NCBI GenBank assembly: GCA_002633005.1
Contig: NMRA01000407.1
Coordinates: 292,666 to 356,665 of the forward strand
DNA from: Phoronis australis
Lineage: Eukaryota > Animalia > Phoronida
DNA: 64,000 bases
Reading direction: 5' to 3'
The position numbers and the translations under genes are program-made. Positions within the stretch are counted from its first letter, which is position 1, and every line of letters begins with the position of its first letter. Below are positions 3,828-46,066 of this stretch, piece after piece. Under the pieces are notes generated by a model that saw only the letters and a list, made by a program, of their open reading frames with translations, had not been told where the DNA came from and made no database searches.

Positions 3828-3965
3828 TACAGGACTATCGTCTGACTCGAGAGTTCACATTTCGTGCATCGCAGCTGAACAGAGCAGACGTGGCGAAAAA
3901 ACATTTAAAAACTCGTGAAGTCTGGAAGAAAAAGCCGAGGAACCACAGAAATATTTTCTTGTCTG

Positions 3966-4982
3966 ATGGGTGATTACGTTATTGGACGAAGCACGAATAT
4001 TAGAGCTCTCTCTCCTGTAGATTTCAACAAATTTAGCAACAATCAGTCTTTGTTTTCTTCTGACCTTTTGCTGGGCAAGGCATCGGCAATGCAAGACGAT
4101 TTGTTGGAGAAATCGGTTGTGAAATCGCAGCAGTTGTCGCCAAATCCCGATCTTAATGGTAGTGGAGATCAGAATTTAGAAGATTCATTTCGAAAAAGCA
4201 AAAGTGATGTATCGAGTCCAATTCCAGAAGAAAGGAAATGTGAGGCTTCTTTGGGAGGGGTTACGTCAGATGCCAGCATAAACAATGTTTCTTCACCGCT
4301 TCCATTTAGTCTGGGCTCTGATGCTGGTTCCCTCAGCTCAAGTCTGGTGACATCCCTTGCTTCAGTTGCTTCAGCTCCTAATCTTTGGTCAACAGCTACC
4401 GCGGATGATACTTTCTTTCAGGCTTTCCCAAATATGAACGGAACTGTTTTTCAGAACTTCCCTCAGTCTGCTGTACCCACACAAACGGTGTACGGAGCCA
4501 GTGGAACGTATCCGCCACAGATGCAGAACCTGAGTCCAACCTTGGCTCAGCAGTTGCAGCAGCAGCAGCAGCAACCCAGGAGGGCTATAACGGCTCACCA
4601 CAATTTCCCTCAAAATCAAAGACCAGCTAACATGCTGATGGGCAACACAAAGGGTTTTGGTTCATGGAACAATCTGACCAGCTCCCCCCAAGCTAGCTGG
4701 GGACAGCAGTCTCCAGTTGGGTATCAGCAGCAGCCTTCCCAAGCTCAACAGCAGCAATGGGGAGCCAATATGCAGCATCAGCGTAGTCGCACTATGCCAG
4801 CCTCTACTCCTAAGCAGTATCCCGCAAAGAGTTCGCCATCACAGATGTTCCAGCAGCCCAAATTTCGCCGCAGTACATCATTCCCTGGACAAATTCAGCA
4901 AGCAGCTATTGGTACAAAACCTTCCTTTGAAATCACTGGTGTTGATGATCAGCAGACTGGACCTGGCATGTTGGGCTATCAG
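3966..4982 (+). CDS. CPEB4: CPEB2/3/4 (Orb2-like) coding exon 1: low-complexity Q/S/P-rich N-terminal domain (339 codons)
   Basis: Lies in the 372-aa ORF. The ATG at 3966 gives MGDY (vertebrate CPEB4-like start) and an in-frame ATG at 4089 gives MQDDLL (CPEB3-like start). Contains polyQ. Ends at the phase-0 donor CAG|GTAATA at 4982/4983. The symbol denotes the CPEB2/3/4 co-ortholog. Confidence 0.9.
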
Positions 4983-13532: not shown

Positions 13533-13632
13533 GACCGCAACTATGACAGCATGCAATTTCCTGGCCTTGAGAGACAGATCTTGGACATCATGAGACAGAC
13601 TCAAATGCAGGACCAGCAGGATGCTTACAGAG
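13533..13632 (+). CDS. CPEB4: CPEB exon 2 (DRNYDSMQFPGLERQILDIMRQTQMQDQQDAYR-G), includes an NES-like LxxxLxDIMR motif
   Basis: Acceptor ttcttgcag| and donor G|GTACCC; 100 nt, phase 0 to 1. Resembles CPEB2-4 'DR..F..SLE.SLIDIMR'. Confidence 0.88.
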
Positions 13633-14060: not shown

Positions 14061-14263
14061 GTCACGGCGTGGCTCAGTGATTAGAGCCGCGGACTCCCAC
14101 TTGGGAGACCCGCATTCAAATCCTGGCTTCACTGGCTGACTATGAGCATTGCACAAAGGTGTCTGTTATTCCTCTGAGTCTTAATAGTGAACGTGTTAAA
14201 GGGAGTGAGTGAGAACCTGGATATAATGTTGAAGCGATTTCTGAGGCTGTACTTAAAAAAAAA
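14061..14263 (+). mobile_element. tRNA-derived SINE-like sequence
   Basis: A-box-like TGGCTCAGTGATTAG and B-box-like ATTCAAATCC at tRNA spacing; A-run at ~14255. Confidence 0.5.
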
Positions 14264-16124: not shown

Positions 16125-17045
16125 TTCACAAAGCAGCCAGGGGAAAGTTATAAGTCAGGCTTTACAAATCAGTCAGGTGATGGTTGTAAGTCAGGTTTCA
16201 CAAAGGAGTCAGGGTATGGTTTTAAGTCGGGCTTCACGAAGCAGGTGATGATTGTAAGCCAGGTTTCACAAAGCAGTCGGGATGGTTGTAAGTCAGGCTT
16301 CACAAAGCAGTCAGGTGATGGTAGTAGGATAAGTCAGGCTTCTCAAAAGTGGTCAGGGGATGATTGTAATCACCTCTCATAGATCAGTTAGGGGACAGTT
16401 GTAAGTAAGGCTTCACAAAGCAGTCTGGGGACTATTGTAAGCCAGGTTTCACAAAAGAGTCAGGATATGATTGTGAGTCAGGCTTCACAAAGCAGTCAGG
16501 TGATGGTTGTAAGTCAGGTTTCACAAAGGAGTCAGGGTATGATTGTAAGTCAGGCTTCAGAACGCTGTCAGGAAAGGGTTGTAAGTCTAGTTTCTCAAAG
16601 GAGTCGGTGTATGATTGTAAGTCAGGTTTCACAAAGCAATCGGGGGATGATTGTAAGTCAGGCTTCACAAAACAGTCAGATGATGGTTGTAGGATAAGTC
16701 AGGCTTCTCAAGAGTGGTCAGGGGATGGTTGTAATCACCTCTCACACATCAGTTAGGGGACAGTTGTAAGTCAGGTTTCACAAAGGAGTCATGGTATGAT
16801 TGTAAGTCAGGCTTCACAAAGAGTAATAAAGATGTGATATCTGATGTAGACTTTATTCATCAATTAAATTACATTAAAAATGCATGTTATTGTACTTCAG
16901 GAACCTTTTAAGTCAGGAAAACTTCACAAAACAGTTCAGGGGACGATTGTAAGTCAGGTTTCACAAAGCCTCAAAGGATGATTGTATGTCACGAGACGGT
17001 TGTAAGTCAGGTTTCACAAAGTGGTCATGGTATGATTGTAACTCA
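16125..17045. repeat. Minisatellite, ~39-bp unit (gattgtaagtcaggcttcacaaagcagtcaggggat)
   Basis: Many tandem diverged units; a higher-order block recurs at ~16320 and ~16686. Confidence 0.92.
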
Positions 17046-17640
17046 AGCTTGTTTCTGCTTGGGTTATTTGTATTTAAGTTACGATATTTCAAAGTTTTCA
17101 AAGCCTTGCAATGTTTACAATAACTCTAGTTGTGAAACTTACCTGGATGAAAATAAATATCCTCTGTTCCACTTACATGTTTTTCAAAAAAGTTTGCAGA
17201 AATTACAGAAATGTGCTATTTAATAATGCCATTTATAGATCCACCACTCGACAATTCGCTTTGAAATGTTTTTTGCACGCTTGCCCTCTGACCCCATACT
17301 GTAGTTCAATTCCACTGTCCTCAAGTCTATGAGTCACTGGGCAGATTCTCTAAGCTATGAGTCCCATGTCTTGTCTGCCTGCTGGCCCAATTTATGTGGG
17401 CTCATGAACTAACCAACAGGTCAGGATTGTTTTAGAAAATACAGAATTTTGGCAAATATTGGAAACATGTTTCTCGATTCATTACAGTTCATGGCAAATA
17501 CTGGATGAAATAGTTGCTTTGTGCACTCTTGATTGTGTTGAATTTATAATGATCGCTAGCGATTACTCCCATTGTGGCAGAGCTGCAGTAAACTCTTACC
17601 ACTAGTTGAGGACCCAATATGGCCATCGACTGAAATTGTA

Positions 17641-18866
17641 TCACTTGTCGAAAAAAATTTCGCCAAGTATGTTGCTCTGTCAGTAAGTTTTTTCTTGTTT
17701 GTTCGCATGATACAGGTCGCAATTTTCGTTCGATCATCACAAAATTTACACACAACACGTAGTTTTGGGCTGTAATTTTTTACGTACAGAGCTGAAAATC
17801 GGCATGATTATTGGACCAGATGTGCGATACATGTGTACCAGAAAACTGCTTACTTCCGGTTAAAGATGGCGAAAATATCGGCAATTGCGCATGCGCATCT
17901 CGATTTTGGGCTAAAAACAATTTCTCCGGTAAAAGGCTCATTATCGGACCAGTTCCTTCGAAGTTTTTCAGCTGTTAGTTTTTTATTACCTGCTATTATT
18001 CAAGGCTAAAAAACCGGAAGTTGCTTTCAAGGTGTCAGATCTGGCTCATGGTGACCCATTTTCTATGGTGCTGGGGTGCCATTTTAAACGGGAAGAGAAA
18101 AAATGTGAATTTTTGCATGTGGATTCTCTAAGGTATACCCATTCAAAAGAACTGGAACAATTTTTTTTCTCAGACTTACCGTTTTTGAGTTATTTGACTT
18201 AGAATTTCAAAAACGCAATTTCATTTTTTTTCATGAAATTTACGGAATGTCGCGAAACTAAGCAATTAGAGATAGAGTTTTGAACATTCTTTCAGAAGAT
18301 ATTTTCATTTTTGGATACCACGTCAACTTTTTGAATTATTCGAGTTTTTCTGGAAACGCTGTTCCTTTGTTAGCCGATTTTGCTGCACTGTTGTTGGTTT
18401 ACCGCCTACTGAACAAGACTAGCCTATTTCATAGTGATTTCTGACATCTATGTTCGTCATATGTATGTTATCATATGTTCATCATCGCCATCATCATCAT
18501 CATCATGTTGTTCATCATCGCCATCATCATCGTCATATCGTTCATCATCGCCATTATCATCGTCATATTGTTCATCATCGTCATCATCATCGACATATTG
18601 TTCATCATCGCCATCATCATCGTCATATTCGTCATCTTCGTCATTATCCTTATCGTCGTCTTTTCAGTTAATTTCGCCAAGTGTCGCTCAAGACTAGCCT
18701 ATTTCTTACTGATTTCTGACCTCTACGTTAGTCATAGGAATGTTATCATTACTTGTGTTGTTCATCGTCGCCACCATCGTCGTCATATCCATCATCTTCG
18801 TCATCATCTCTATCGTCGTCTTTTCTGTTAATTTCGCCAAGTTTCGCTCCTTGGAACGCTTTCATT
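17641..18866 (+). mobile_element. Second, diverged copy of the HINE-like family with internal (CAT/CGT)n microsatellite and duplicated 3' end
   Basis: Colinear similarity to 26742-27960 (caagtatgttgctctgtc, caggtcgcaatttt, acttccggttaaagatggc, ctcagacttaccgtttt). The 3' motif aatttcgccaagt occurs twice (~18670 and ~18830). Confidence 0.7.
18470..18820. repeat. Degenerate (CAT/CGT) trinucleotide microsatellite
   Basis: catcatcgccatcatcat arrays that explain the spurious poly-H/S/I/M ORFs. Confidence 0.9.
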
Positions 18867-21645
18867 TTTATCTTTTTTCGTGAAAGATTTAGCATCAAAT
18901 TTATTCTTTTTCCATATTCAAGTTTTGTACAACAGATACCCTCAGACCATATTTTGAAAAATATGGGCTTTCACAACAGTGTTTGAAGCTCTTGAAAAAA
19001 ATGAAAAACTGACATTTTATGCAAAATTGTTGAGATGTTACCGGAACCTTTCCAACTTATTTTGAGAGGATTTTGTAATGGCTGTTTCAGTGCGGGAGTT
19101 GCACTTTCCCAATGATGTAAAATCTGCAGAATGGGGGGTTGTGGTGTCAGTGGGAAAGTGGCAACATTTCAACCGTTCTGCGCTACAGTATCTTTATAAC
19201 TCGTGCAAAAGCATTACAGAATTTATCTGGATAAAAGAAAAGTAATTTCATCTTGTCTGGTCAAAGTTGAGATTGGATCAAGCAGCAGTCCTTCCGTGTT
19301 CACCCTGTGCTTGGCATGTCATGACTATGATGGGTATTGTTGCTATTCCTTTTTCTTGTTAAAGCAACCAGCTGCTGAATTATGATAGTGCCATGCCATG
19401 AATATCTAAGTAATAAGGACAAGTGTTCTGTACTTGTCAGCTACTGCAACAGTACAAGACAAAAGTAATCCAAGGAAATTCTGTATTCTGTCATGACTAC
19501 TAATTCCGTTAACGTAAAAATAGGCGACATCGTTCTAGTTACAGAACGGCTTAGCCGCCATACTTTCCTGTTAATTCTCTTTCATTTTTGGTCATGAGGG
19601 AAGTTATGGTGAACTTAGCTTTTGCTGAGACATCCTGGCGGGGGAATTCCAAGTCATAATGTCTGAATACTTTTGGCTTGCACTATATGCCATGTTGTCT
19701 GTACCTAATACTGAGGTGATGTTTGTGTTCCTATTCTTGACACACTCATCACGCTATCCTTAGAATTACTGTTTTGAGATGGAAAAGTCGTTGTGTAAGC
19801 TGCTTTGAAAATATGTGTTACTTTCCGCACTCACCCACTCACTGTTTTTTAGTTACATAAGTTGACTCTTATTTGCTTCGAACTTATGTGTTGCCAAGCA
19901 GTATGGAAAATTCCCATTTTCCTCCAAGCTCCTCCTAAAGTGCCTTCACTGCAAATGCTTGTTAGGCTGTTGCATTATTGGCATCAAGTTCAATCAAATT
20001 TTGAGTTGTGCGGAAAGCATCAAAATACTTTAAGCTGACGTGTGGTTGAACTGTTGTGAGATATGCCAAGCACCCATCCATGATGTAAATTCAATTTGAC
20101 TAGCACTGGATTGACTGCAGGAATTCTAAGATGCAGTCTCACCTTTGGTCATTGTGATACTATGTATCATTCTACTTTGGCTTAGTCAATAATATTTGGA
20201 ATGCCAAAAGCCTGAATTAGCTAGTGATTTACATTACTTATCAGTTTTAGGTTTTGCTCATGTGACAAGTACCTTGTTTTGTTTGCCCAATGGTTTAATC
20301 CTTTAACCCAAAGGACAACTGTGCTTTGTGCACAAGTGAACACCATGAGTATAGTTGAATGGTCTTTAGTCCAAATTTGGAGAACCTGGATGACCTGGGG
20401 ACATTTAATAACATTTTTACCTCTTTAATTTCTTTATTATATATATATATATTCCTGTGATAGTGTGTAATTAATGAATTTCACAAAAGCATTTTGTATG
20501 TGCCTTTTCACCTGTGTCTAACTACCATACTTGATTTGTCTATCATAGTCTGCGTGTGTAACTGATCTGCCAGTAATAGCTATATTTTTTAATTAAAAAA
20601 TATACAACGTAGACAATGCATTAATATGCTGTCCATTTCATTTTTTTCATCTAGTTTTGCTCTCTAGAGTCCGTTTGCAAGTTCTTGGAAGATTCTCCGC
20701 CACCGAATTCTGCCAAAACTGAAAGAAACCAAAGGTTTTGTTAATTAGTTCGGTATTTGATCATGGCATAACTACGTCAAATAGTCTGAATTATTTGAAG
20801 TGTTTTGTCTTTGGAGTGTCTCCGGATAAAAATAATCATTGAGCATGCGTCATAAACCATTTCTGTTCCTCAGTAGTGCTGCATCTGGCTGTGTGACCCA
20901 CTAGACAGTGCTGATGTTTCAGATAGGCCATAATCCAAGCAGTTCTAAGAATAGACCATCTATTATAGATGTGTTGGAGCACTACTTGGCCTGTATACTT
21001 GTGCCAGTTGGGTGAGCCTGAACAGCAATCCTGTCTGACAGTTTAGGTAGAATCTCCAGTAAGATGGAATACACAGTGCTGGCAATGCTGCAGAATGTAA
21101 AAGTTGGAGTTTTTTTGGAGAATTCCTATGCTGGTTTATAATTTCCATAAGTCATGAGATCATGATCATGATTGTTGAAAGACCAGTCTGGACCAGTTCC
21201 CAGTTGGCAAGTCTGTTGCATGTTGGTATCTCACTGGGGTCAGTCTGACCTTTCTTTTATTGTATATGGATACAAATGTCTGGTCAATAAAGGGCACCTT
21301 GGTGCTCTTGGACCATTTAACCCCTCATTTCAATGTCACAACTTTTTTTGGCTAGTGAACAGGCACAGCTAATCATACCATTTCAGTTTTCTGCCTTTTT
21401 GTATTTTCACAAGCACTTTTTGTTATCAAAGCCCTGCAATGATCCAAAACAGGCATGACTACTAGACAATTTATTTTTTGTTATTTAGAAGTCATTAAAG
21501 CAACCACTTAAGATGATTTCAAACCGTATTTTGTGACCTCCATTCTAACTTATAAATCAAAAGAACAGGCTATTAGTCCACCAATAAAAGTATGTGTTTT
21601 CTGAAAGAAAAATGACCAGAGATTATAAAATTATGTTTTATAGTT

Positions 21646-21981
21646 ATGTGCCATTATTATTGTTACATTACTAACTTTTTAAAGTAAAAATTTTATTTTT
21701 AAGAAAGGTTCATTCATGGCAAAAATTTTTCGTGGTCGATTTTAATGAAGACTTTTTTAAATGAAAACTAAACAATTCACCTCAAAAAAGCTGTTAGGAA
21801 TTTTTGATGTTTTATTTTATGTGCCATTATTCTTATTACGTTACCTACTTTTTAAAGTCAAAATTTCATTTTTAAGAAAGGTTCATTCGCAGCAAAACAT
21901 CCTCTTGGTCGATTTTAACGAAGACCTTTTTAAATGAAAAATTCACAATTTACCTCAAAAATGCTGTTAGGAATTTTTGAT
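21646..21981. repeat. ~173-bp tandem duplication
   Basis: tatgtgccattatt...aagaaaggttcattc...ctgttaggaatttttgat x2. Confidence 0.85.
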
Positions 21982-23251
21982 TACTCCTTTGGTTTTATTT
22001 CCATGCCAAGTTAACTCACAAAATGTAAGGTATTTTTGTAATAAATACGGTAGCAGTCGTATGCGTCTACCTTTCGGTGCGCAGAACTAGGTGTTTAAAA
22101 GGAAAACCCTTACAGCGTTTTTGAGACTAGAGAATAAATATTAAAATTGGAAAGTTTCAGTGAAATTCACTGAACCGTTTTCAAGAATTCATGTTCCAAA
22201 GTGCAAATCAAATCAATTTGCCGAAGCCAAGTGAAAGCCGAAAACTGAAGGTTTTCCGATTAATTATTTGATGAAAACTTGCTTTTGGCCAATGTAACTT
22301 GTACATGCTATTGGCTTGTTAACTATTTGAACATTCACTCGTAATGTCAACTGAATTGGCAGTGTGTAATTAACTTAATTGTCACTAATTTTGTGAAGTC
22401 TGCTAACAAGAAATCGAGTAAAACTGGTTAAGGGGAGGAGTTTACCTCTTGACCTATTAAAATAGGTCAACTAGTACTAGTACACACCACATGCCGAAAC
22501 GTATGCCGGGAGGACTGAAAGAAACCAAGCACCAAGTGTAGAATTAAGATCGAGTATCTGTGGTTAAAGTGCGCCGTGAGCACCAGGTCGAAACAGCGAA
22601 ACGTCAGATTACCAGTGAAATGAATGAATTTAGGTGAGGATGTATCTTTTTCCACAATTTGCTGTGTGATATGCCAGACGCCGTGCAGCAGCTCGGTGCC
22701 TTCGTCATAACATTATCAACGGTCGAATGTAGGCAAACATGCCACTCACTTAGGATCAAAAATATGTTATGCCTTGTTATGTTTTCCACAGCATCTTTCC
22801 ATGCTATGTTCACCTCGTTAACTCACTCATCATGGTTTGTAACCTTTGACCTTGGATACAAAGTAAACAAAGTTTCAAGTCAAGTCATTTTATTTATAGT
22901 CGGTTTGTCAAACAAGGAGAAAACAGAGAGGCTAAATGAAGATAAGGTATTTTGCTTGACATATATGAAATATTGTAAAAATGGCCAATTTTTGTGAATT
23001 AGGTTTGAGATATCCTTAATTGAGATAACATATTCAGTTGTATTTTGTTGTGCAAAGTTTTTATCACTTACCAGTTTTGTCGTGTTTAATATGTCGCGGT
23101 AATTCTGCCCCTATTTGGCACACAATCTGGCTGACAAGTGAAATTTCATTTTTACAGTTTTTTCCATAAAAGCATAGACTGAGAAAATTTTAGTCTATGT
23201 TAAGCCTGGTTTGCACTGTGTAGATGCAATAAATAGACAATCCTACACTCG

Positions 23252-23369
23252 TCTTCGGTTTATGACATGGGCACAACCTCTTGGAAATTTCGGTAAATCC
23301 CGAGGCTTGCCGAGGGGTTTTGACGAAATTCTAAAAGGTTTTGCCCTAGTCATAAACCTGAGGCGAAGA
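23252..23369. repeat. Long imperfect palindrome (MITE-like fold-back)
   Basis: ggtttatgac..gggca / tgccc..gtcataaacc, aatttcg / cgaaatt. Confidence 0.75.
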
Positions 23370-26300
23370 AGTTGTTTGCATGTCCTTTCGACTGGTAGTA
23401 CGTACCTGTGTTTCAATGACTTGGTAAGGCTTGGGGTTGCAGTCCACAAACTGGCTTGACCTGCTGGTTGTTACACTTAGACATTTTTCACTTTCAACTA
23501 ATTATGTTGTCTGGCTTCATGAATGTTAAAAGAAAAACCTGCCCTATCTATTTTTACAGTGAACTGTGAAGGCTCTGTGTTAGTTACAGTTGTGACACTG
23601 GATTTGTCAATTGTAACCTTGTCACCTTCACGGAATTCTGGCATTGTTTGGTTGTTGGTATTAGTGTTTTGCTGATGTAAGGCGTGTGGATTTCTACGTC
23701 GCACTACTTTGCGATTCTCCAAGTAATATCAAAAAAGTTCCGTAGTCAGTGTTATTAACCATTGATGTCGTAACACATTCTGGGTCATGAGAGAAAACAG
23801 TATTTGGTAAAGTGTCCATTATTTACAGCAACATAATCAGCCTTTGAAAACAGAAAATGACAATTCTAACAATTAGTTTTGTGCAAAGTGAGTGAACTTG
23901 CTGTAATGTTCAGCCAAGTGTTTGTGCCTTATGCAAAAGTAGAGGTTTGGTTCATTATGATATGTATATGTTCACATGTGACAGCGCTACTTGTGTAAAA
24001 CTATGAAAGATGACTTTTAAACTATAAAAAAGTTGAAAGGATTGAGTAACAGGGGTCCAGGATACGCAGAAACTAGGGGGATGAATGGAATTGTTGAAGC
24101 TTTAGGGGTCGGGACAGCAGGGGAGAGAGAGAAAGGTGAAAATGTTTTTTATCTTTCACAAGTCGTTATGTGTAGTTTCAGTACTAGGTTCCTGTGGTGG
24201 AAAGTTGCTAATGTTTTAGCTAGACGAGTGTTCCTCAAGGGACTCATTTTCGCCAGCAGTTAGTTTTGTTTGGACCTCACCACCAGAATGCTTTTAAGCC
24301 AAAATGGGTGACAAAACACATTTTCCTCTGGGGTAAATTGATCAATAGGATGATAAACAAAAGCCTCTTAACCCCTGCACATGTGTGTGTCCTTTGAAGA
24401 AAGTCACCTGGCTATAGAAGTCTCTAATTAGCACCTTAAGCTGTTTTGGGGTCCCTAACTCAAAGCACCAACAAAAGTATTGTTTGTGCAAAATTGCTGG
24501 TGAAAATGCATATATGAATTCGATAAGCCTGCCTCAGAATGACATCTAAATACCTCAGGCAACTTTTAACCACACTTTAAATGAAAAAATTGTTATTTTT
24601 TATGAATATAAATACAGTTTGAGCAACTGTGAGCTTATGAAATTGGAGCCCATATATTTTGGTTAACAAGACAGTTTAAGAAATCATTAGTAATTGGAAA
24701 AACGAGTGAGTTAAGCACTAAAATGTATTACAAGCACCGGTAATTAACTTCTAAATTAGCCCCTTTAATTAGATGTCACGTAAACCTGAAAGTCTGTAAT
24801 CAAGTGGCTCATCCATAATTTAGTTTTGAACTGAGGACACTAATTGTAAGAGAGGGATATTGACATAATTATCACAAATGTGCTATTCTTCCACAGCTGG
24901 CCTCCAAGCCATCTGGGTACATCATCACTTGGCTGCAGCCACTGGCCCCTCTGGGATTTCTTTGTACTGGATGCACCAAAGTTCTGTGTCTGGTCTGGGT
25001 TTTGGCATCTCAGTCAATATGTGGTCACACCATCTGCTGGGTGGAGTTCAGTGAAATTGTTAATTGTTTTTTGTATTTTTTTTTTTGTTCTATTATTAGA
25101 ACCACAATAATACTCTCATTATAACTCCAAAATGATGCAGATAAACATTCATTTAATTATTGTACTAGAATTATACATGTCTGTCTTTACCTTCCTGGCA
25201 AATCGTGAATTGACTAAGGTTAATTTGAAAACTAAATGTTAACTGGCTAATCCAAACACTTTCCTGACTATATAGGTGCTAAAAGGACATTTGTCTGACA
25301 TTAGTCCCATTTAGACATCAACTTTTGGCCCGGCTGGCCGTTTACACACACAACTCACTAACTATGGAAAGACCGAAGTTATAGGCTGGAGAGTCGAACG
25401 CACATGCGCAGGTTTACAAATGGCGGGAGTTGCAAAAACAGAGAACCTGTATGTAGGTCATTGCACAAGCGTAGTTTCGCGTTTAGACATATAATTGGCA
25501 AGGAGCAAGTTGATCAAGCGCAAATTGCTCTACCTCACAAATGGGTGGCAAAAGTTGTCACCGCTTGTTACCGCGGTGTCAGTTTTGCTCCAGGTCAGTC
25601 CTGTTTACAAACATACTTGGGCTAGAACATCTTGTTCCATGTCAGCTGATCTGTGTCAACATTTGTAGTGTAAATGGCACTTTTGTTGGTTGACAGTGGA
25701 TGTGAATTAAACCTGCTCACTTCAATATACATTCCACTCTATACAGGCCAAGGGAAAGTACACCCCTGTTGACTTGCTTGCATAAATTCATTAAATCTGA
25801 ACCATTTCAACCTGCATGAAAGTTAACTGTAATCATTGGTACTGGTGCAACACCATCATGGGGTTATCAATTTAATCTCATACAGGCATGATAGTACCTG
25901 ATAGTAGGTATGTAGTTATAGGGACAAGGCTGGTAGTTGTGAGTGCACCCAGGTGAAACATTCTTGTCAGTATTACCCCCAGTTATTAACAGAGGCTATA
26001 AAGCTGTTATTCAGATCAATAAACCCATTGGAAATCTGTCCACTTCATTCTGCGATCAATAACTCTTCATCTGTGTCAGGTGCATGTTTTAGTTAGTTTC
26101 AGCTTTCATTAAAGCTAGCTCTCACCCACCATCATTTTTTACTTAGGAACTGACCATGTCAATCCCTAATGTTGAGATCAAATGCATTCTCTGTAGGAAA
26201 AGGTTCTTGAAAGCATTCTTTAGCCTTTCATCTGCTCAAATGGAGACTCTGTTGTGTTCAATGTGTTTAATCTATTGGTTGCTCCAGATAGCAACATCTC

Positions 26301-26741
26301 ATTTGGATGTAATTGATGGTGTGGTGAGAGAATGGCTTGCATTTTGACTTTACCCTGCAATCATCCTTTATGCAAAAGTTTTCATTTGCTGAAACAAATG
26401 GAATGCACTAAAGCTTCTGATAGCAGCTCAGGTGTTTATTGATTTCACTCCAGTTGAGGATTGCCCTTAGACCAGGGAAATGTACTAGTTATTAATTTGG
26501 TCAAAACTTTGATGACAAACATTAAGAAATTGCCTTTGCCAACCATAGAGCATGCTTATTGTGAAGACTTCACTTGTATGGTAGACCTCCCATTCTTTAT
26601 ACGCAAATTCATTTTCATTCTTACCGCTTTGTTATGGTACTAGGCTGGGTAAGAGCCAAGGGTTCATGACTTCATCCACACCCTACTGTGTTTTCAATGG
26701 GTTTCCCAGGGCTTGGAATTTTCCTCTTTTATGAGGATTTC

Positions 26742-27960
26742 TTATTACTTGGCGGAATTCTTCGAATTCCGACAAGTATGTTGCTCTGTCAAGTTTTTTT
26801 TTTTTGTTCGCACTCTACAGGTCGCAATTTTGGTCCGATTTTCACGAAATTTGCACACAACGTGTAGATCGAAAAGTCCTAGAAGCCTATTGTTTTTGAT
26901 CATGATCGGATACAAAATGGCGGACGTGGCGGCCATTTTGTATCCGATTTCACAGTCAAATACTCGTAGAGGCCGCATTTTTCAACCTACAAGGCTGAAA
27001 ATCGGTACGAATATACTACAATTTTGCAGAAAATCGTTGACTTCCGGTTAAAGATGGCTGAAACATTGGACGTGGCGCATGCGCACCCCGAAATATGGCC
27101 AAAAACGTTTTCTCCTGTAGAGGGCGTATTTGCAAACCAATTACTTTCAAACTGGTCACGTGTTTGTTGAGTTTAATAAGCTTTTATAAAAAATTATTGA
27201 ACCGGAAATCACTTTCAAGATGGCGGCTGTGGGGCATGTTCACACGGTTTCAATCGCCCTGGTGTCGCATTTTTTATGGGAAGAGCAAATGACGTGAATT
27301 TTTGCATGTGGATTCCTTGAAGTATGGCCTTTCAAAAAGTCTGCGAGAGCGTATTTCTCAGACTTACCGTTTTCGAGTTATTTGCCTTTGAATTTCAAAA
27401 AAACGACAAATTTTTAATTTTCTCAAAAAATTTTTGGATTTTTGCCAAACTACCACTTTAGATAGAGTTTTGAACTGGCTTTCAGGAGATATTTTCCATT
27501 TTGCGCTACGACGTCTACTTTTTGAATTATTCGAGATTTTCGGATACCGTTGTTCCTATGCAAGCGCGCAGGGGGCTGGCTTTCAGTTCACTTTGTTTTG
27601 GTTATGTCTGCACAAGTTAACAGAGAGTTGTGACCCCGACTGACCCAGGTAGCACTGTCGTACTGTAGACTGGAATTCCAGGCTAAATACTATTGTAAAC
27701 ATAACTTTGCTCTGCAGACTGTCACATAGTGCCACCTATTTTGGATTGCGGGAACAAAGCATGGCTCGTCCGTCATGTTGTGCTATCTATTGTTCTTTAT
27801 TGTAGTGCATTATATGCTCTCTATTTGATTTCTTCGCTAGTCACATGAATGTTACCGTGTTATTCATTATTGCCGCCTTGATCGTCATGATTGTCGTCGT
27901 CCTCCCCATTGTCGTCTTTCGATTAATTCCGCCAAGTGTCGCTCCTCCGAGCGCTCTCGT
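26742..27960 (+). mobile_element. Helentron-associated (HINE/DINE-1-like) non-autonomous element
   Basis: 5' subTIR ACTTGGCGGAATT (26747) with adjacent inverted copy (26765-26777); 3' subTIR AATTCCGCCAAGT (27925-27937); then hairpin CGCTC-ctcc-GAGCG and a T-run. Confidence 0.72.
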
Positions 27961-28448
27961 TTTTTGATTTTGACTTGGTCTTATTTGATTTCCAGTTTCC
28001 GCTTTAATTTTTCATCTCTTGTCTTTAGTTTGACTTTATTCATGCAAAAATGTTTGTGTTAAATTTTACAACACAAAGAATTTCTATCACGCAAGCCTAT
28101 TTATTTGTGGAACGGTACATCACCTGGAATGTTTTCCTCGTGTTTGTTATTGGTCATTCGAAGCCCTGGTTTCCCACACACAGCCTATCAACAACTTGCA
28201 CTAGTGCAACTTACTCCACTTTTAAGTGGAGCGTACACACACGCACACATATCCAATAATTAGGGTTAGGGTAAGGTGAAAGTTGTCGCTCTGCGTGAAT
28301 ACCTAAAGCGAGTATGGCACGCAAAAGAAAACCTGTCTGCATTAACAGATAATTACTTCCGCCCTACCCCGCTTTTGGGGCCACACATGGATTATATGTG
28401 GCGCAAGTTATGCTAGAACAAGTTACCCCACCTGAATGATGTGAAGTA

Positions 28449-30847
28449 CCGTAATCGTTCGGGTTAACGCCCATGCTCAGTTAACCGCCTATCCCCGACT
28501 TTAAGTGGATTTTCGATTTAACCGCCCACTGCTCGGTTAAGCGCCCCCCTGTGATTTTTGAAGATTTCCAGTTAAGCGCCCACCTCTCGGTTAAGCGCCC
28601 ATCCCCGACTTTTAAAGAATGAAGATTTAGCGCCTAGTGCTAAGGAAATGCGCGATTCCCCGACTTTTAGAAAAAGATCGATGATCACAATGAGTGCAAC
28701 GACCCCGGGACTCCGAGACAGTGGTTTAGCAATCTGAATTACAATACAGGTAACGAGTTATTGTCTTGGGTCATGAACTCACTTCAAAATATAATACTTG
28801 AACCTTTTTGTCACTTTATTTTCTTCCCTTGTTTGCAAAGTTTAAGAATGCCGGCGGCGTCAAAGCCTCCGCTTTCAGCGACTTTGTCTGCCGCGCTGAG
28901 TTTCTGTCTGCAGTGCACTAGATAAAACATATATTCGAAAAAATCAGGCCAGAGAAATGTGACAATGGTTTTGCCAACCCTCCAAATTCTATTAAGGTGG
29001 GAAGATCTCGTATTTTGAACAAATCTCACAACTCACGGAAAGATGTCAAATTCTCAATATTTTGATGAATATAACTGCCGGGTTATAGAGGATGTGGGGC
29101 GACCGAAGGGACAGTACTCTGAAGTGCCTTACTGGGTTACCGATTTCGTTGCTGCCTGTCGATTTCTGAATTCAAACGTTCGCAATAATGTATGTTTGTG
29201 TATGATCTTGAAGTAATAAAAAACGACTAGTCAAATTTTGTTTTTCGCTAATTGCATCTCAGTCAAACTGGTTAGCAGATTTAACTAATGTCGCTGGCTG
29301 TTCTTTACTATTTCTTGTGTCAGCCCCCACGTAAGCGTGACTGTGTGAATTATCGTTTCCGCGTCCTCTTTTTAGCCATCCAGAATAATTTTGTTTATAC
29401 ATTGGCCATTTTCAGCCTGAACAAAAATTCTTACCATTCGAGTCTGAAATATCTACGACGTAGACTGCTTGACGATAGTGGGTAGGAGATTCACGCTGCT
29501 AGTTACAGGGATGGGCTTAGGGAGCATCGAGCCGGTAAATATGGGAATAGACTTGACATCGCAGTTTTGGGGAACATTGGCAACGGAGGAATATCGTAAA
29601 GAACTGGGTCTTTCGTAACAACAGCTTAAAAGTACATAGTCACGCCCGTTTTTGTTTCTTCGTCGGACTGTCGCTATGTGTGACTGATTTGTAGTGGTGC
29701 ACGTGCGCAAGTTCACACACTTTGGAGTGCATGTTACCTTGACACCAACATGTGATTGACAGGTGACTCACACGTAGGCCCTACGTGCGTGCTGAATACT
29801 GCCACTATCTTTGGCCATAAAAACGAGATGCATATTGAAAGAGGCCTTTATATTACTTGACGGCATTTTCAAGTCACGATTGTCAGCCAACTGAGACATT
29901 GCGCGATAACAGCGTGACCGAACAGTGCTGCAGTGCGATATTACAAGTGATATAAATAGGATAATCTGGACATCTTGCATGAAAAATAAATGTTTTTGTA
30001 CCACGCAGTTTGGTAAGGTGATCGTTTAGAATAATGAATTGAAACATTGCTGTTTTCTGACATTTTGTAACATATTTATGCAGTTGCTTGAAATTTTATT
30101 CTTGATCGACGACTGGCTCGACCACCCCCGATCCTTGTCTTACTTCTTTGCATAGCACGTTTGGCGCAACGGCAAGAGAGCAATGCCGGGCTGTCGAGAT
30201 AAGACAGCTAGCCGCAGAACCATACGTTGAAAATGTCATTGAGTCACGGAATGACGACTATAACATCCCAAACACAAAAAAACAGCAGAGTTAAGTTTTT
30301 CAAACTTTTATTACAACCAATTTTAAAACTGCTCTCTGACTCAGAACTTGACAGCTACATATAGTACGACTGACCTCTGCAACACGTGAAGCTTGCACGC
30401 GCGCACTTAAGCAGGGTCACATCTTGAAACAGTTTTAATTCTAGTGGAGGCTGCGTGGTGACTGGTCGTCTGCGCACCGCAGGACGGCACGGGGCTATTA
30501 CTCAGCAAGTTTGTAAATTTAATAGTGAATGACTAATCTGAGGGCAAGAGAACCTTTGTTGGGATCATCCGCTGTTATGTCATTTGGCGACGTGACGATA
30601 AAGCTCTTTGAAAAGGGCTACGCGTTCCGAGTATGATTGCTTGTCGTGTCGGGATTTAGATCGGCAGGTAAGATTAACCGCCCAGGGCGGTTGTCTGTTG
30701 TAATAAGCGCCCATGTTCGGTTAACCGCCCATCCCCTACTTTAGGTGGATTTTCGATTTTACCGCCCACTGCTCCGTTAACCGCCCTCCCCCGATTTTTT
30801 GGATTCGCCAATTTAACCGCCCAGGGCGTTAACCCGAACGATTACGG
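28449..30847. mobile_element. Non-autonomous Tc1/mariner-pogo-type DNA transposon, 2.4 kb
   Basis: Perfect 24-bp TIRs CCGTAATCGTTCGGGTTAACGCCC (28449-28472 and 30824-30847), flanked by TA on both sides. Arrays of TTAA(C/G)CGCCC subterminal motifs. No transposase ORF. Confidence 0.88.
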
Positions 30848-31916
30848 TAAGTTGTTTCAAGTTGTCCTAGTTTAAATAGCACCCAGGCAGTCACTCCCAT
30901 TGGCATTGTTTGTGGTTTTGTGATACATTTTATGGCAGTAGTTGTAAAGTAATTTTAATTAGGAGTTAGATGTCCTCTGAGTTTACATGTGTTGTTAGGA
31001 TGGTTGTATGGTGTGGGATATTGGGTATCTATAGAATGATTATCAAATGTTTGTGCCTTCAGAAGAATGAGGTTCGTGGCACTGCTGAAGTAATGAAATT
31101 ATCAGCACAGGTTAATTATCATAATATGTTAACAACCTATAGGCAGCTCCATTTACAAAAACAAGTTACTTTTATAGAGAATGCTGGAAAAGTGAGCCTG
31201 ATATGTCAACCGAATTATCTGCTGTATCTGGATAATGAGATTTTTCATTTCCTCATATGGCTTATGCTGCTGTTGTTGCATTACACGAATGAATACTGCT
31301 CCGTGTTTCTGTTCAAAATGCTGTTGACTTTATTGGTATTTATTGATTGCCTTTGGGTGAAGGTGACTTTGAACTTGCAGGTAGAGAATCGCAGTTTAGT
31401 CTTGTGCTTTTAGTTAGGTTTGTATTTTAAATCACCCCTCCCCACATCTCATTGCGTTACACGTTCAATTGAGCATTTTAATTGGGTCATGAATATCGAC
31501 TGTAGTTCCCACCTATAAATTTATTTTCTTTTCTGGTTTGATGTGGAATGTGAAAGTTTTTCAGTGTTTTTTTTTTGCATGTAACTTACGTCATTGCTGT
31601 TGACATAAAGTTGTTAATTTTTCTGTTTAAATCTGTGTTTGATGAAAATTGAACTGGGTGACTTATGCAGTCTTGTTCAACGTTACACCTGTCTGTAGTT
31701 TTAAGGTACGGCACACACAGTCACTCTACCCAATGACTGTTGACTGCCGGTTTCTTCCTGATTGCCGGTTCCTTCTTAGTCATTTGTACCATAACTGTTG
31801 GTTGTATGCTGCTAGTGATGAACAATGCTTTAATAGCACATGTTAAAAACCTGACATTTTGACTTGCACAATTTTAACTTATTGCTTAATGGTCACCTTC
31901 TGTCTTTCTAATGCAG

Positions 31917-31940
31917 CCAGGACATACGGTCGACGAAGAG
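31917..31940 (+). CDS. CPEB4: 24-nt cassette microexon encoding (A)RTYGRRR(G), equivalent of CPEB4 microexon 4
   Basis: ccttctgtctttctaatgcAG|CCAGGACATACGGTCGACGAAGAG|GTatat. Exactly 24 nt, phase 1-1. With the flanking exons it reads ..AYR-ARTYGRRR-GKSP. Confidence 0.9.
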
Positions 31941-33379
31941 GTATATTTTAAGTTGTTTCGTTTTCAATTGTCTCTTTCTTCAGTCTCCTTGAATGTTGCT
32001 TTTTGGTTTTGTCAATGTGTTTCGAGTTCTAATTTAGGAGACAACTTTGACGAGGTACAGTTAAAAGTGATCGAGAGCAAGATGACCCTGTGCACATGTC
32101 AATTTATTTCCTGTTTTCGAACTGGTGCAGATTGCACCGGATCATCTTGTTCTGACACTAAACTCAAATGGGCGTCAAGGTGCAAAATGTTGTTTCAAAT
32201 GCTACACACCTTTGTGTATCTGTCCTAATTATAAATTGTCTTGTTTCGGCCTTGATACCATATGTGAATCTGAGCTTGGGATCAATTTTTATTCCGAATC
32301 AAGTTTGTCATCCAAATGGCTCTGTTGTACGAAATCCTGAAATCCTGCACGGATGGTTGCATAAACTTTCATTTCTCATTCCCTTCTGTTTAATGATTGT
32401 TCAATTTAAGACTGAAACTGCTATTGATCAAACTATGCGGTTTGCTTTTTGCGTGTTTACTGAGTTTCCATACCATTGCCTGTTAAGGTTTCGTTCTTCT
32501 GTTATGAAAACAATGTTCCTGACAAAACTGAAATTAATCGTAAAAATAAAGGACAATGGACATCAGAAAGGATGTAATTTCTTGTTTCAGTTTATTAAGC
32601 TTGCTAGTTTCTCTCGTGACTCGCATGGACCAATATTGAACCAAATATGTTGAGTTGTATTGCACAGTGCCAGGTCCTCTGTGCGCAGAGATGTCCATGG
32701 TCTTCTCCATCCGTCCCCTAATGCTTGATATTCCCTACTGTGATGGCTCATTTCCAGTTTGTCATACATTGTGCTCCCGATACAAAAGAGTCCCGCGAGG
32801 CTGACTGCGTGGCGCTTCCTCCCTCGCTGTTCTATCATAGTTATTGTTAAATATTTTATACTCCGTTGCTGCATTTTGAATGAACACAGCTGGAATGTTG
32901 CTATACAAACTACACAGACAAAATCAATAACGTTGTATAATGCACTGGTGGACACTTCTGTCTCAAGGGCGCTGCTGCTGCTGCTCTGTTTATCTCATGC
33001 AATTAGCATCTTTTTTCGTGATTACTAGTTGTTCACCCTTTGGAGGTGCATCTTGAGCAGTCGCAAGATGATGTTCACCGCTAATCGAATCAGTAACCCT
33101 TAAATGTCTTTATTTTCAGTATATTTTAATGTACTCTGTATACAGAAATTTGGTTGTACGTATTTGATAACTTCTCACACCGTTACACCGTGGGATTCAA
33201 CATAGATTTTCTGTGTAGTCCTGTGTCCTGGCCGGTACGTACATTAGGAGGATACTGGTCCACTGGTATTGAGCCTCAATCACCCACACGCATGTACTCA
33301 TTTTAAGCACCCTGTCGGTTCTGCAGGTTCTTCAGTACCAGATGTTGTTGGATAAGCCCTCTCATTATCATCTTGCGAG

Positions 33380-34800
33380 AGTGTTTAGCCATTTTGGATA
33401 TCATCTTGGGTGGGTATGGGATTGTGAATGTGTGGCACTCGCATCCATTACAGACCTCTGTACCATACACAAAAAATGCGGATTCGTACGGAAATCAAGT
33501 CTCTAGTACGCAAGTAGGCATGGCCAGGCAAAAATACGCAAATTCAAAAGAGATTATTAATTCGCTTGTTTTTCAATAAATACACTGATTTGTAGTCGAA
33601 ATGGATGAGGAAGAAGAGTTTAAAGTTAGAAATTAAAAAAATATTCTAAAATGATTATTTTAGCCAAAAAGTTAAGCTATAAACTCAGAAAACTTGCCTC
33701 GTTTCATTCTCGAAATAGCCTGATAATCGGCAAATCGCGAGGCCTCTTCTATCTGTATGTGTGTCACAAGCCTAACCTATAAGCAACAACTTCTGTGATT
33801 TGTGGATTGCTTACGTCGTTTAATTACAGCTATTTACGGCTAAATACAGACTATTGACAAAAAGGCAAAGCATGAGTGGTCACATATTCCGAGCTGTGAA
33901 GAAAATTGTATTTTATAGCTTCTGATGGAAGGGAACATCTGTTTTTGCCACGTTATTCCAAAGAATGACAATGTCTTATTCAAAGGGCCATGGAATTTAT
34001 ACTGCAAGTTGTATAGCGTGTTGTTTTTTGTGGACATGGTGACTGCACTGACTTTGTAGCATGTTGAGCTGACGATAATTCTCGAGCCACAGTCAAGCCT
34101 CGAGCCTCGGTCATTTTACATGCTGTACAGTGGTACGAGTTCACAGACACTTGCAATGAATGATTATTCAAAACTTTCGGGAATGGTTAAGAAAATATCG
34201 TCTGGTGCAAAACATTGTCCAGTGCAGATTCATCAACACATTTTTGCAGATATGTTTTTGTGTTAAGAAATAAGGTGTACATTAGGCAATTAACATAACT
34301 AAGTTCAGTAAGGACAGTTTCTATTGATTAACAGGATATCTTTTCACTTAAGCGCGTTGTCCTTCAACTAAACAACTTAAATTATTCTGAAAATTGGTGA
34401 TCAATTCACTATGTGTATTTTAGAAACTGTTTCAGAGGCAAATAAGTAGGAAAAGTACCCATGGGCATACACAGGGGGGCTTGAATGAGTCCCCCATTTG
34501 GCAAAGTGGGCAAAAATTTTGTGAGAGAAACCAAAAGTCCGAGAAAATGAGACAAAAGTCCACTAAAGAGGCAAGAATTCGGCGAAAGCTCTGAACACTG
34601 AGCAAACCCGTTGTTTTTTTTTTAGTCAGTGAAGGTCCACTGCTAAACATTCAAACCCCCCTCCTATATTGTACGGTAATTTTGGTCTGTACGCAAAAAT
34701 CTGCAAATTTACTGAAAAATCTGCAAATCTGGTGTTCAGATTACTCCAATGCAGTTTTGGTGGTACACAGGTCTGCTATTATGTGGATGAGAAAGTTCCT
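33380..34800. repeat. Old dispersed repeat, copy 1 (paralog of 40160-41350), interrupted by a small insertion ~34430-34680
   Basis: Shared blocks such as ccaggcaaaaatac.caaatt, cattgtccagtgcag and gtggtac.caggtctg, in the same order and orientation. Confidence 0.7.
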
Positions 34801-35508
34801 GATCTTAATTCCAATTTTATTAAGTATGGTAATTTCAAATTCGTGTTGCATCAGAAACTTGTTATTGGGACTTCTACTTGTATGGTCTTGAACATGGGGA
34901 CAAATATTTTCATCAGCAATTACAGAATGCTGAACAAGTGATTTTGTAGTGAATGGATTCAACTCAATCATGCAAGCATCCACACACCCGGGTGATGATG
35001 TCACTGTTTTTTTCCTTATAAGCGCTAATCGTGGAAAGTTGAACTTGGTGTAGTCTTCTAAACTGACACTTGTTTGAATTTGGCATTCAAGTTGCAAAGA
35101 CTCCCCTATTAAGTTGTGAAGGCACGAGGTAGTACCGTATATGATCACTCAGTAATCTGGCTGACTGACCATGAAACATGAATAGTAAGAAGGAAGTTTT
35201 AAACTGTGTCCATTCATTATTCCATTGTTCTGGACAACTAGTTTCTTTATTTAGTGTTCTGTTACAAAACTAGCCAGTGTTTGTTGCCATATTGTTTTTG
35301 GTGCGTAAAGTCACGAGCCTGGCGACCAGTCCTATTGAGCCTGCTCTTGAGTAATAGTGAACTGTCAGTTCTTAGTAATCTGCACTTGCAACAAGTTGAG
35401 ACCAATTTTACATTGGCAAACGGTCTCAATCAAAATATTTTGACAGCAAGTGTGTAGATAGCAGGGGTCTTGTGTTAACCAGCATCATCCCAGTTTGTTG
35501 TTTTGTAG

Positions 35509-35688
35509 GCAAGTCCCCGTTTGGAGTTGTAGATGAACAGTACTTACTCGACGATGGTTCTCTGGACCAGACAGTGCCCAACATCAGCCCGACAAGAGGC
35601 TCACCCAGCTCTCCATTTGGTACGGAACGCATTGAGCGGTTCTCAAGGAAGGTGTTTGTGGGGGGTCTGCCACCTGACATAGATGAAG
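35509..35688 (+). CDS. CPEB4: CPEB exon: linker and start of RRM1 (GKSPFG...ERFSRKVFVGGLPPDIDE)
   Basis: ttttgtag| ... G|GTAATA; 180 nt, phase 1-1. Contains the hallmark CPEB2-4 motif RKVFVGGLPPDIDE. Confidence 0.96.
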
Positions 35689-39283: not shown

Positions 39284-39373
39284 AGGAGATCACCAGTGCA
39301 TTCCGTGACTTTGGACCTCTGATTGTCGACTGGCCCCACAAGGCAGAGAGCAAGTCTTACTTCCCCCCTAAAG
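39284..39373 (+). CDS. CPEB4: CPEB exon, RRM1 (EEITSAFRDFGPLIVDWPHKAESKSYFPPKG)
   Basis: atttccag| ... G|GTAACT; 90 nt, phase 1-1. Near-invariant family motif VDWPHKAESKSYFPPKG. Too short for the ORF track. Confidence 0.97.
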
Positions 39374-40159: not shown

Positions 40160-41350
40160 GCCGTGTTGAACCATTTTTCGACAAAGTTTTTGTCCTTATT
40201 TTCTAGGGACATAATTGCAGACCTATGTACCATATGTAAAAAATGTGGATTCCTACGAAAATTGGGCTTCTAGTACCCAAGTACGCAAGACCAGGCAAAA
40301 ATACCCAAATTTGAAGCATATTATTTACTGACTGGTATGGTCCACGTAGTGATAAGCTGATAAGCAAAAATGGGAGATTCTTAAATTAGAAATTAAACAT
40401 GTCTATGTATACAATATATACATATATATGTGTATATGTATATATTCACATTTTTAACCAAAAAACTTGAGTTGCGAAATTGGAAACTTGCTTTGATTCA
40501 TTCTAAATATAGCAAGATAATCCACGAATTACAAGGCCTTTTCTATCAACATTTAATGTCACCGGCCTTAACTATAAATTACAGCTGTGGTTGGTGGGTT
40601 GTTTACTGCGTTTGCTTCTGACTGTCTCCTATTAAATACATACTGTACCGTAGTCAAAATGACAAAACGTGAGAGGTTGCATATTCTGAGCTGTGATGAA
40701 AATAGCTTCTGAAAGAAGCCGGAACATTTGTTTTTGCTACAGTATTCCAAAGAATGGCAGTGTATTATCAAAAAGACAAAAGGACTATAGAATTTGTTTT
40801 GGAAGTTGTGTAGCGCATTGTTTTCTTGCGCACATAGTGGCCACACTGGCTTTGCACCGTCAGCGGGTTAAGGTTTTTTGACAGCCAGTATGTTAGTATG
40901 TGTTTATATAGGCTTTCAATTAACAATTATTCCAAACTTTTGTGGAAGATTACAAACGTATTGTCTGATGTAAAGCATTGTCCAGTGCAGGGTCATGAGC
41001 ACTTTTTGCAGACATGTTCTAGTTTAAGAAGTAAAAAAGTCTTGAAGTCTTCTTAGTTATCTATCTTATCATGGTATGTATTACCATTGTGGCTTGTATT
41101 TACATAATTATGTAACTTCAATAAGGAACCATTCCACTCATTAACGGGATCGTTTCACTACTGCAAACGCAGTCCACCAACTAAACACAATTTCAACAAG
41201 CTAACATGCTGAAAAGTTCAAATTTTCAAAAGTTTGGTCTCTACATGAAAAACTGTAAATTTTCTGAAAAATCTACGTTTCTGGTGTCTAAAATATTCTA
41301 ACACAATTTTTGTGGTACGCAGGTCTGTAATTATGTTGAGGCTTGGTAGA
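40160..41350. repeat. Old dispersed repeat, copy 2
   Basis: See 33380-34800. Confidence 0.7.
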
Positions 41351-43110: not shown

Positions 43111-43229
43111 GCTACTGCTTCCTACTGTTTCAAGATGAGATGTCAGTGCAGAAGCTGATTGCAGACTGCATTGTTGAAGATGAGAAGTTGTACTGGTGTG
43201 TGTCTAGTCCCACTATGAAGGACAAGCCG
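43111..43229 (+). CDS. CPEB4: CPEB exon, RRM1 (YCFLLFQDEMSVQKLIADCIVEDEKLYWCVSSPTMKDKP)
   Basis: tccaccag| ... CCG|GTGAGT; 119 nt, phase 1-0. Confidence 0.96.
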
Positions 43230-44043: not shown

Positions 44044-44158
44044 GTTCAAATCCGCCCGTGGAGTTTGGTGGATAGTGATTTTGTCATGGATGGCTCCCAG
44101 CCGCTGGACCCTAGAAAGACCATATTTGTTGGAGGTGTACCCCGCCCTCTGAGAGCTG
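44044..44158 (+). CDS. CPEB4: CPEB exon, RRM1/RRM2 junction (VQIRPWSLVDSDFVMDGSQPLDPRKTIFVGGVPRPLRA)
   Basis: ttttacag| ... G|GTACGT; 115 nt, phase 0-1. Family motif. Confidence 0.97.
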
Positions 44159-45170: not shown

Positions 45171-45352
45171 TTGAGCTGGCCATGATCATGGATCGTCTGT
45201 ATGGCGGTGTCTGCTATGCTGGCATCGATACCGACCCTGAGCTGAAATATCCAAAGGGGGCAGGGCGTGTGGCCTTCTCGAACCAGCAGAGCTACATTGC
45301 AGCCATCAGTGCACGCTTTGTTCAACTGCAGCATGGAGATATTGATAAAAGG
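45171..45352 (+). CDS. CPEB4: CPEB exon, RRM2 (VELAMIMDRLYGGVCYAGIDTDPELKYPKGAGRVAF...GDIDKR)
   Basis: tgtttcag| ... AGG|GTATGT; 182 nt, phase 1-0. Confidence 0.97.
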
Positions 45353-45838: not shown

Positions 45839-46066
45839 GTTGAAGTCAAGCCATACGTTCTGGACGACCAGATGTGTGACGAGTGTCAAGGAGCACGTTG
45901 TGGCGGCAAGTTTGCGCCGTTCTTCTGTGCCAACGTTACTTGTCTGCAGTACTATTGTGAGCATTGTTGGGCTCAGATCCACTCTCGCCCTGGCCGGGAG
46001 TTCCACAAACCACTAGTCAAGGAAGGAGCGGATCGTCCCCGCGCTGTTCCATTCCGATGGTGCTAA
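45839..46066 (+). CDS. CPEB4: CPEB last coding exon, ZZ-type zinc finger (VEVKPYVLDDQMCDECQG...RPRAVPFRWC*)
   Basis: ttgttcag| acceptor; 228 nt to TAA; Cys/His pattern of the CPEB ZZ domain. Joined CDS is 2031 nt (676 aa) without and 2055 nt (684 aa) with the microexon, frame intact. Confidence 0.97.
   Translation, partial: VEVKPYVLDDQMCDECQGARCGGKFAPFFCANVTCLQYYCEHCWAQIHSRPGREFHKPLVKEGADRPRAVPFRWC

Follow-up and report, generated by a model that had tools for sequence, protein, structure and literature searches.

A 24-nt cassette microexon in an invertebrate CPEB2/Orb2-class gene matches the autism-linked CPEB4 microexon and is likely older than the bilaterian radiation

The window, by which we mean the whole 64,000-nt stretch of DNA that was analysed, carries a gene of the CPEB2/3/4 class on its forward strand, which we modelled as nine exons separated by GT-AG introns (Table 1). 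RNA reads supported the joint between exons 1 and 2 as well as those leading from exon 3 to the last exon. The encoded protein has the features of the CPEB2/3/4 subfamily, namely two RRMs and a C-terminal ZZ domain behind a long low-complexity N-terminal domain; single-exon Pfam matches comprised PF16366 (Table 1) and the start of PF16367, PDB entry 2mki (CPEB4) was also matched, and the RNA-binding region was 96% identical to that of a chiton, 91% to mouse CPEB2 and 87% to Drosophila Orb2. The domains and the high identity to CPEB2-4 uphold the Orb2-class assignment made in the initial annotation. The N-terminal domain (426 residues: 53 Gln, 56 Ser, 34 Phe/Tyr/Trp and 3 His) matched no Pfam family, and the best matches of the N-terminal exon were lophotrochozoan CPEB2-like proteins (chiton 45%, Lineus 40%, Owenia 38%). 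In a quick gene tree of 44 proteins with long-branch outgroups, which gives clade but not phylum, the protein fell within a lophotrochozoan set (support 99) and outside the mollusc set (97), with its position among Owenia, Lingula and the nemerteans unsettled. The evolutionary argument had initially been made conditional on the genome being that of a protostome, and it is among the protostomes that this lophotrochozoan placement puts it. The putative 3’ UTR contains two GTGCAAT sites (46475-46481 and 47478-47484), which we take to be miR-92 seed matches, and several CPE-like TTTTAT motifs, all noted with no chance control. In vertebrates, CPEB2-4 carry miR-92 sites that are conserved, and conservation across bilaterians is reported for a segment of a Cpeb 3’ UTR. 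No MARCHF5-like motif was found in 1-3966, a stretch that may be too short for one, and no Rfam family was found in the window.

Table 1. Features of the gene in the window and optional inserts of invertebrate CPEB2-like proteins at the microexon slot
Feature	Positions	Strand	Description
Exon 1, coding part	3966..4982	+	Gln/Ser-rich low-complexity N-terminal domain; 339-aa ORF from ATG 3966; reads join its end to exon 2
Exon 2	13533..13632	+	100 nt; conserved LLDIMR-type motif; donor serves both isoforms
Microexon acceptor region	31837..31916	+	78-nt AG-free zone; UGC at -5, -34 and -52; pyrimidine tract
Microexon	31917..31940	+	24-nt phase 1-1 cassette; peptide ARTYGRRR, residues 373-380, 46 residues upstream of RRM1
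Exon 3	35509..35688	+	GKSPF linker with Ser383; start of RRM1
Exon 4 (RRM1)	39284..39373	+	read joints
Exon 5 (RRM1)	43111..43229	+	read joints
Exon 6 (RRM1-RRM2)	44044..44158	+	read joints
Exon 7 (RRM2)	45171..45352	+	read joints
Last exon, coding part	45839..46066	+	CPEB ZZ domain and stop; PF16366, E 9.5e-21; 3’ UTR next, reads to at least 46400
Chiton Liolophura			optional insert ARTYGRRQ
Two Octopus			optional insert ARAYGRRR
Three bivalves (Mercenaria, Ruditapes, Dreissena)			diverged optional inserts, e.g. ALNFKQKL
Lingula			optional insert ARPYGRRR
Lineus			optional insert GRGYGKRQ
Horseshoe crab Tachypleus			optional insert ARGFGRRR
Two spiders (Argiope, Larinioides)			optional insert ARNYGRRR
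Shrimp Penaeus			optional insert GRGYTRRR
Tunicate Clavelina			optional insert AGLFRRRR
Acoel Symsagittifera			optional insert HRQSYRRR

Within the 21.9-kb intron between exons 2 and 3 (13633-35508) lies a 24-nt microexon, bounded in the window by AG at 31915-31916 and GT at 31941-31942, that encodes eight residues, four of them arginine. Exon 2 joins exon 3 either through the microexon or directly, and with either join the reading frame stays open across the two RRMs and the ZZ domain, yielding proteins of 684 aa with the microexon and 676 aa without it. The coordinates, length, AG/GT ends, phase and in-frame peptide first noted for this exon all proved exact when the window was rechecked. 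We scored every stop-free AG-24nt-GT/GC stretch of the intron against the eight-residue peptide, with the minus strand as control, and found that the microexon scored 42 and the runner-up 10 (90 candidates), while the best of 218 minus-strand candidates reached 14. Note that the score of 42 is a self-match, as the reference peptide was taken from the window, so the real test is an external one: in the available part of bioRxiv 10.1101/2023.03.19.532587, the human CPEB4 sequence is printed as TIK-ARTYGRRR-GQSS, identical to the window peptide at 8/8 residues and in the same slot. The peptide of vertebrate CPEB2 matched at 7/8 residues. No block shuffle of the intron reached a score of 30 (0/300; maximum 24) and ~6e-9 exact matches would be expected by chance, which bears out the earlier judgement that an 8/8 match with the CPEB4 microexon (me4) is very unlikely to be fortuitous. 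Beyond the exon itself, the flanking intron DNA gave no alignment to other loci.

Splicing was assessed in three raw RNA runs (X2, X3 and X4), all from one study and chosen by species label, of which ~18-19% each was read and whose sample tissues are given as codes. All 112 reads over exon 2 matched the window at 99+%, so the runs come from the same species or from one indistinguishable from it. At the exon 2 donor, 4, 11 and 10 reads (X2, X3 and X4, respectively) ran across the whole microexon and on to exon 3, and 11, 10 and 10 passed directly to exon 3, giving 25 included and 31 skipped in total (45% inclusion, 25/56, 95% interval 31-59%; 27-52% per run, in coded tissues); the difference between runs was not significant (Fisher p 0.13). 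The joint 31940-35509 (GT..AG) was crossed by 4, 4 and 12 reads (20 in total) vs. 24, 11 and 19 for the next constitutive joint, and the single contig obtained from a run of a related organism (X1, organism A) was the skipped form. Reads were therefore present on all three junctions singled out by the initial annotation (13632-31917, 31940-35509 and 13632-35509), and the hidden exon is really spliced. These data confirm that 31917-31940 is an alternatively spliced cassette exon. The junction reads rule out an artefact or pseudo-exon, and the skip reads in 3/3 runs together with the skipped X1 contig rule out a constitutive exon. Use of a tandem AG that lies four bases inside the exon, which would shift the frame, was not seen at the exon 2 donor among loose-end groups of at least 3 reads. 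Introns 3 and 4 also contain copies of a dispersed repeat (33447-34790 and 40214-41340), which attracted many RNA reads of 85-95% identity from elsewhere in the genome and belongs to an abundant transcribed family.

Skipping or reduced inclusion of the 24-nt microexon of human CPEB4 is linked to autism. That exon is catalogued as HsaEX0016969 in human and MmuEX0012543 in mouse, and CPEB2 and CPEB3 have an equivalent B-region exon; for vertebrate CPEB2, ARSYGRRR was present in 23/109 proteins of one retrieved set, and isoform pairs showed an optional 8-aa insert. The mouse and zebrafish tables list the vertebrate microexon at 24 nt (PMC8797185, PMC12626424; available portions). Like me4 and the CPEB2-3 B region, the window exon is a 24-nt, phase 1-1 cassette, and it sits, as me4 does, between the LxDIMR exon and the exon leading into RRM1; its proposed orthology to the vertebrate CPEB2-4 exon is thus borne out by slot, length, phase and sequence. 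Unlike vertebrate CPEB4, however, the window gene is of the single-copy invertebrate type and lacks a histidine cluster, the serine following the exon is in a Ser-Pro rather than a Ser-Ser context, and neither reads nor scan gave a second, 51-nt (C-region) cassette. Drosophila Orb2 belongs to the same subfamily and shares the Gln-rich N-terminal domain, but has no insert in 3 models and, in the part of the literature available, is described with a His/Gln amyloid core that the window gene does not share. Other short in-frame cassettes, those of APBB1/2/3 (6 nt) and MADD (9 nt), are likewise kept in deuterostomes and protostomes; as far as the available source text goes, neural inclusion of these is documented for insects and for outgroups, whereas the window exon is longer and apparently missing in insects.

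To describe the spread of the exon, we compared 30 protein clusters, of which 24 were named invertebrate clusters; part of them were chosen for taxon interest or for a visible basic motif, so that the fractions below are those of a non-random sample, and amphioxus and hemichordates lie outside the named invertebrate set. Isoform pairs differing by exactly eight residues at the microexon slot occurred in 10/24 named invertebrate clusters and in 14 species (Table 1), and the same optional insert distinguishes automatically annotated X1/X2 CPEB2-like models at NCBI (Liolophura, Octopus, Lingula, Lineus, Tachypleus, Argiope, Penaeus, Clavelina and Symsagittifera). RNA-supported NCBI models of 14 invertebrate species thus already encode the insert, uncommented as a homologue of me4, and the initial remark that gene predictors miss an exon this small holds only in part. 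A similar basic stretch was present in all full models of three further clusters (Tubulanus, in all three models, a mite and a tick). The insert was not found in the protein models of the other 11 clusters (Owenia, Haliotis, Patella, scallops, damselflies, mayfly, Drosophila, tardigrade, starfish, Oikopleura and the coral Xenia), and it was seen in no insect, gastropod or starfish protein model among those examined; as this rests on protein models rather than genome scans, absence here does not equal loss. The damselfly Ischnura has a different, 10-residue option instead, and in Haliotis the X1/X2 models (P0004, P0036) differ by another optional insert, of 15 Arg/Ser-rich residues, before exon 2.

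Identity to the human peptide was 5-8/8 for most inserts and at most 4/8 for the strongly diverged ones of the bivalves, tunicate and acoel. Arg and Lys together numbered 3-4 in 11/14 invertebrate inserts and 2 in the three bivalves, and, judging from these peptides, basic charge is what stays constant across phyla. We also scanned 80 metagenome loci, many of which had too little upstream DNA to be informative, against 2566 control candidates (maximum score 23). Clear genomic copies (24 nt, phase 1-1, score 38) were found in 2/80: the invertebrate locus L004 has ARTFGRRR 777 bp ahead of exon 3, and L055, a vertebrate locus of CPEB4 type, has ARSYGRRR 448 bp ahead of it. Two bivalve-type copies (L015:4273-4296 and L018:1194-1217) scored at the control level (10) and were accepted only for their resemblance to bivalve inserts; in heterodont bivalves the 24-nt length and phase are retained and the peptide has drifted to two or three basic residues. 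A tentative further variant lies 3.9 kb upstream of exon 3 at L006:2495-2518 (score 11), and the transcript L003 includes the microexon.

The same slot, length and phase and a near-identical sequence across phyla strongly favour common descent over convergence, and we regard it as close to certain that the invertebrate microexon and vertebrate CPEB2-4 me4 descend from one exon. Similar arginine-rich microexons could instead have arisen repeatedly in one hot-spot intron: neural exons often evolve recurrently in the same genes (bioRxiv 10.64898/2026.09.05.749416; available text), several lineages have other optional exons in this very intron, and the least similar inserts, those of bivalves, tunicate and acoel, share no more than half of the human residues. 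We consider such independent origins very improbable, however, as length and slot are common to vertebrates, molluscs, a brachiopod, a nemertean, chelicerates and a crustacean, mostly with 5-8/8 identical residues, and the phase is identical wherever DNA is available; for vertebrates vs. lophotrochozoans and chelicerates this alternative is largely refuted. The eight-residue isoform pairs in 14 invertebrate species agree with the initial proposal that the microexon arose before the CPEB2/3/4 duplications and likely also before the bilaterian split. The acoel insert, about half identical, likely points to the last bilaterian ancestor, and the microexon is likely older than the bilaterian radiation.

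Other optional exons occupy the same region. Three loci matching Xenia (L053, L056 and L057) and three Xenia-like loci (L045, L047 and L052) have a 39-45 nt, phase 1-1 exon in the microexon slot (mini-exons at the approximate positions ~L047:8582-8626 and ~L053:3874-3912), which is Lys/Arg-rich, begins with Ala and occurs in each of the three Xenia models; the intron of these loci, covered in full, had no 24-nt copy. This exon may be a forerunner of the bilaterian microexon or may be unrelated, since the next cnidarian exon starts ~20 residues later than the bilaterian one. In Penaeus (X3/X5) and in vertebrate CPEB2 (C region), the microexon is immediately preceded by a second optional exon, which encodes 17 residues starting with Gly. 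Optional exons upstream of the microexon occur in chelicerates and nemerteans as well, and a two-cassette layout may be ancestral. In the upstream part of the window intron (13633-31916), no read group pointed to a second cassette and none of 148 candidates exceeded the reverse-strand control outside a degenerate 36-nt tandem repeat. This repeat (16116-17050, ~19 copies) contains long open frames and is linked to exon 2 by no reads.

As to regulation, the 24-nt exons of mouse Cpeb2 and Cpeb4 are tabled as eMIC-dependent (PMC8797185, available supplement), and the zebrafish cpeb4 exon shows 88% neural inclusion vs. 2-18% in most other tissues (PMC12626424, available supplement). We propose that an SRRM3/4-type (eMIC) splicing factor would turn the microexon on mainly in neurons, and we consider such neural control in invertebrates rather probable. 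The available part of PMC8797185 describes the eMIC as bilaterian-ancestral and its target sets as almost wholly rewired between phyla, and orb2 is not one of the four exon positions it gives as common to the fly and mouse programmes. The AG-free zone of the microexon acceptor (Table 1) is the longest among the eight acceptors of the gene (13-54 nt in the others), and the acceptor weakly resembles the target pattern published for eMIC/SRRM4 (PMC8797185). A UGC at -5 was present in 4/6 genomic copies, but also in 1/7 constitutive acceptors of the window gene (that of exon 2), and L004, the best invertebrate copy, had no UGC within 60 nt of its acceptor. In clusters whose NCBI models carry the microexon, 9/9 assembly-derived proteins were skipped forms (P0051, P0057 and seven Penaeus-cluster proteins), which suggests that skipping is the bulk default.

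We also weighed the reading that the microexon is homologous and alternative, yet no neural switch in invertebrates, being included broadly or in another tissue such as muscle or gonad, with neural control born in vertebrates. The inclusion of 27-52% in the coded-tissue runs also fits broad inclusion, eMIC-type motifs are weak and inconsistent, eMIC targets turn over rapidly (PMC8797185, available part), all three Tubulanus models contain the insert, and a 20-species survey that covers octopus names no CPEB exon among ancestral neural exons in its available text (bioRxiv 10.64898/2026.09.05.749416). In that text, though, the ancestral call demands an insect exon, a rule that shuts out any exon that insects lack; an overall level of ~45% could arise in whole-animal RNA because CPEB2-class genes are neural-rich, and the bulk assemblies are mostly skipped forms. 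We judge an origin of neural control within vertebrates possible but unlikely.

At the protein level, inclusion adds eight residues to the linker that immediately precedes the RNA-binding domain of this translation regulator of the CPEB2/Orb2 class. In human CPEB4, the me4 arginines bind a histidine cluster and thereby prevent pH-dependent aggregation (PMC11711090, available part), and with 8/8 identical residues the window exon might be expected to work in exactly the same way. Its N-terminal domain, however, has 3 His in 426 residues and no more than 2 per 24 residues, vs. 9 in turtle CPEB4, and the maximum per 24 residues was at most 5 in all 12 exon-bearing invertebrate proteins measured. 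In the absence of this cluster, transfer of the human condensate mechanism to the window gene is not supported, and an identical mode of action is extremely improbable. Since the microexon survives in proteins that lack such a cluster, the mechanism published for autism cannot have been its first function. Given the 34 aromatic residues of the N-terminal domain, we favour a reading in which the arginines form a patch that engages aromatic contacts within condensates: the insert would tune self-association through arginines that contact aromatic residues instead of histidines, and we give this ‘sticker’ role an even chance of being the main ancestral function. The predicted fold of the included chiton isoform was of low confidence throughout (mean pLDDT 41.8) and uninformative.

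The main rival for protein function is a phosphorylation switch, in which a serine three residues into the next exon becomes a basophilic kinase site (PKA, CaMKII or S6K type) once the arginines are added. The B region of mouse CPEB3 is required for S419/S420 phosphorylation (PMC4767366, available part). Inclusion completes an RxRxxS motif at Ser383 of the window protein, and the same holds in the two Octopus, Lingula, Tachypleus and the two spiders. But the serine is found in only 7/14 invertebrate pairs, with chiton, shrimp, tunicate and acoel keeping a basic insert without it, and the skipped form of the window species retains RxxS. Moreover, a serine followed by proline is disfavoured by PKA/CaMKII/S6K-type kinases, and Ser383 is Ser-Pro; we hold this switch unlikely to be the main ancestral job. 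Still less probable in our view is that the basic patch acts not on condensates but on localisation or RNA contact, either as a signal for nuclear import or as an additional arm that binds RNA next to RRM1. CPEB3 shuttles via the nucleus (PMC2995057, available part). The basic run lies 46 residues upstream of RRM1, and a conserved short helix is predicted just upstream of the insert. This helix is presumably the CPEB4 export signal. Against a role in localisation or RNA contact, the stretch up to RRM1 is a disordered, variable linker. Taken as a whole, we regard an ancestral me4 orthologue under a neural eMIC switch, which would tune self-association by arginine-aromatic contacts, as the best explanation and a reasonably likely one.

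The vertebrate exon is known; what appears to be new is its age and spread. No statement on invertebrate conservation of the microexon was found in the searched portions of the literature, and in the full text available the peptide string ARTYGRRR occurred solely in work on human CPEB4. Conservation was likewise not stated in the available parts of PMC10284499, PMC8011179, PMC10735318, PMC12628316, PMC11965684, PMC8379844, PMC2995057 and PMC2995058, nor matched in 11/15 supplementary files of PMC11711090. The survey of 20 bilaterians (bioRxiv 10.64898/2026.09.05.749416), as far as its available text goes, calls only the APBB and MADD exons bilaterian-ancestral neural and does not mention CPEB or orb2 in the main text; its supplements may list the microexon. 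An exon that is identical letter for letter between human and a lophotrochozoan, and recognisable in chelicerates, shrimp, tunicate and acoel, would be a third and larger ancestral candidate. Invertebrates differ in whether they have the microexon, the histidines or the downstream serine, which makes them a ready-made series in which to look for the function of the microexon, and octopus, Lingula, spiders and Symsagittifera offer tractable models, in testable contrast with fly Orb2.
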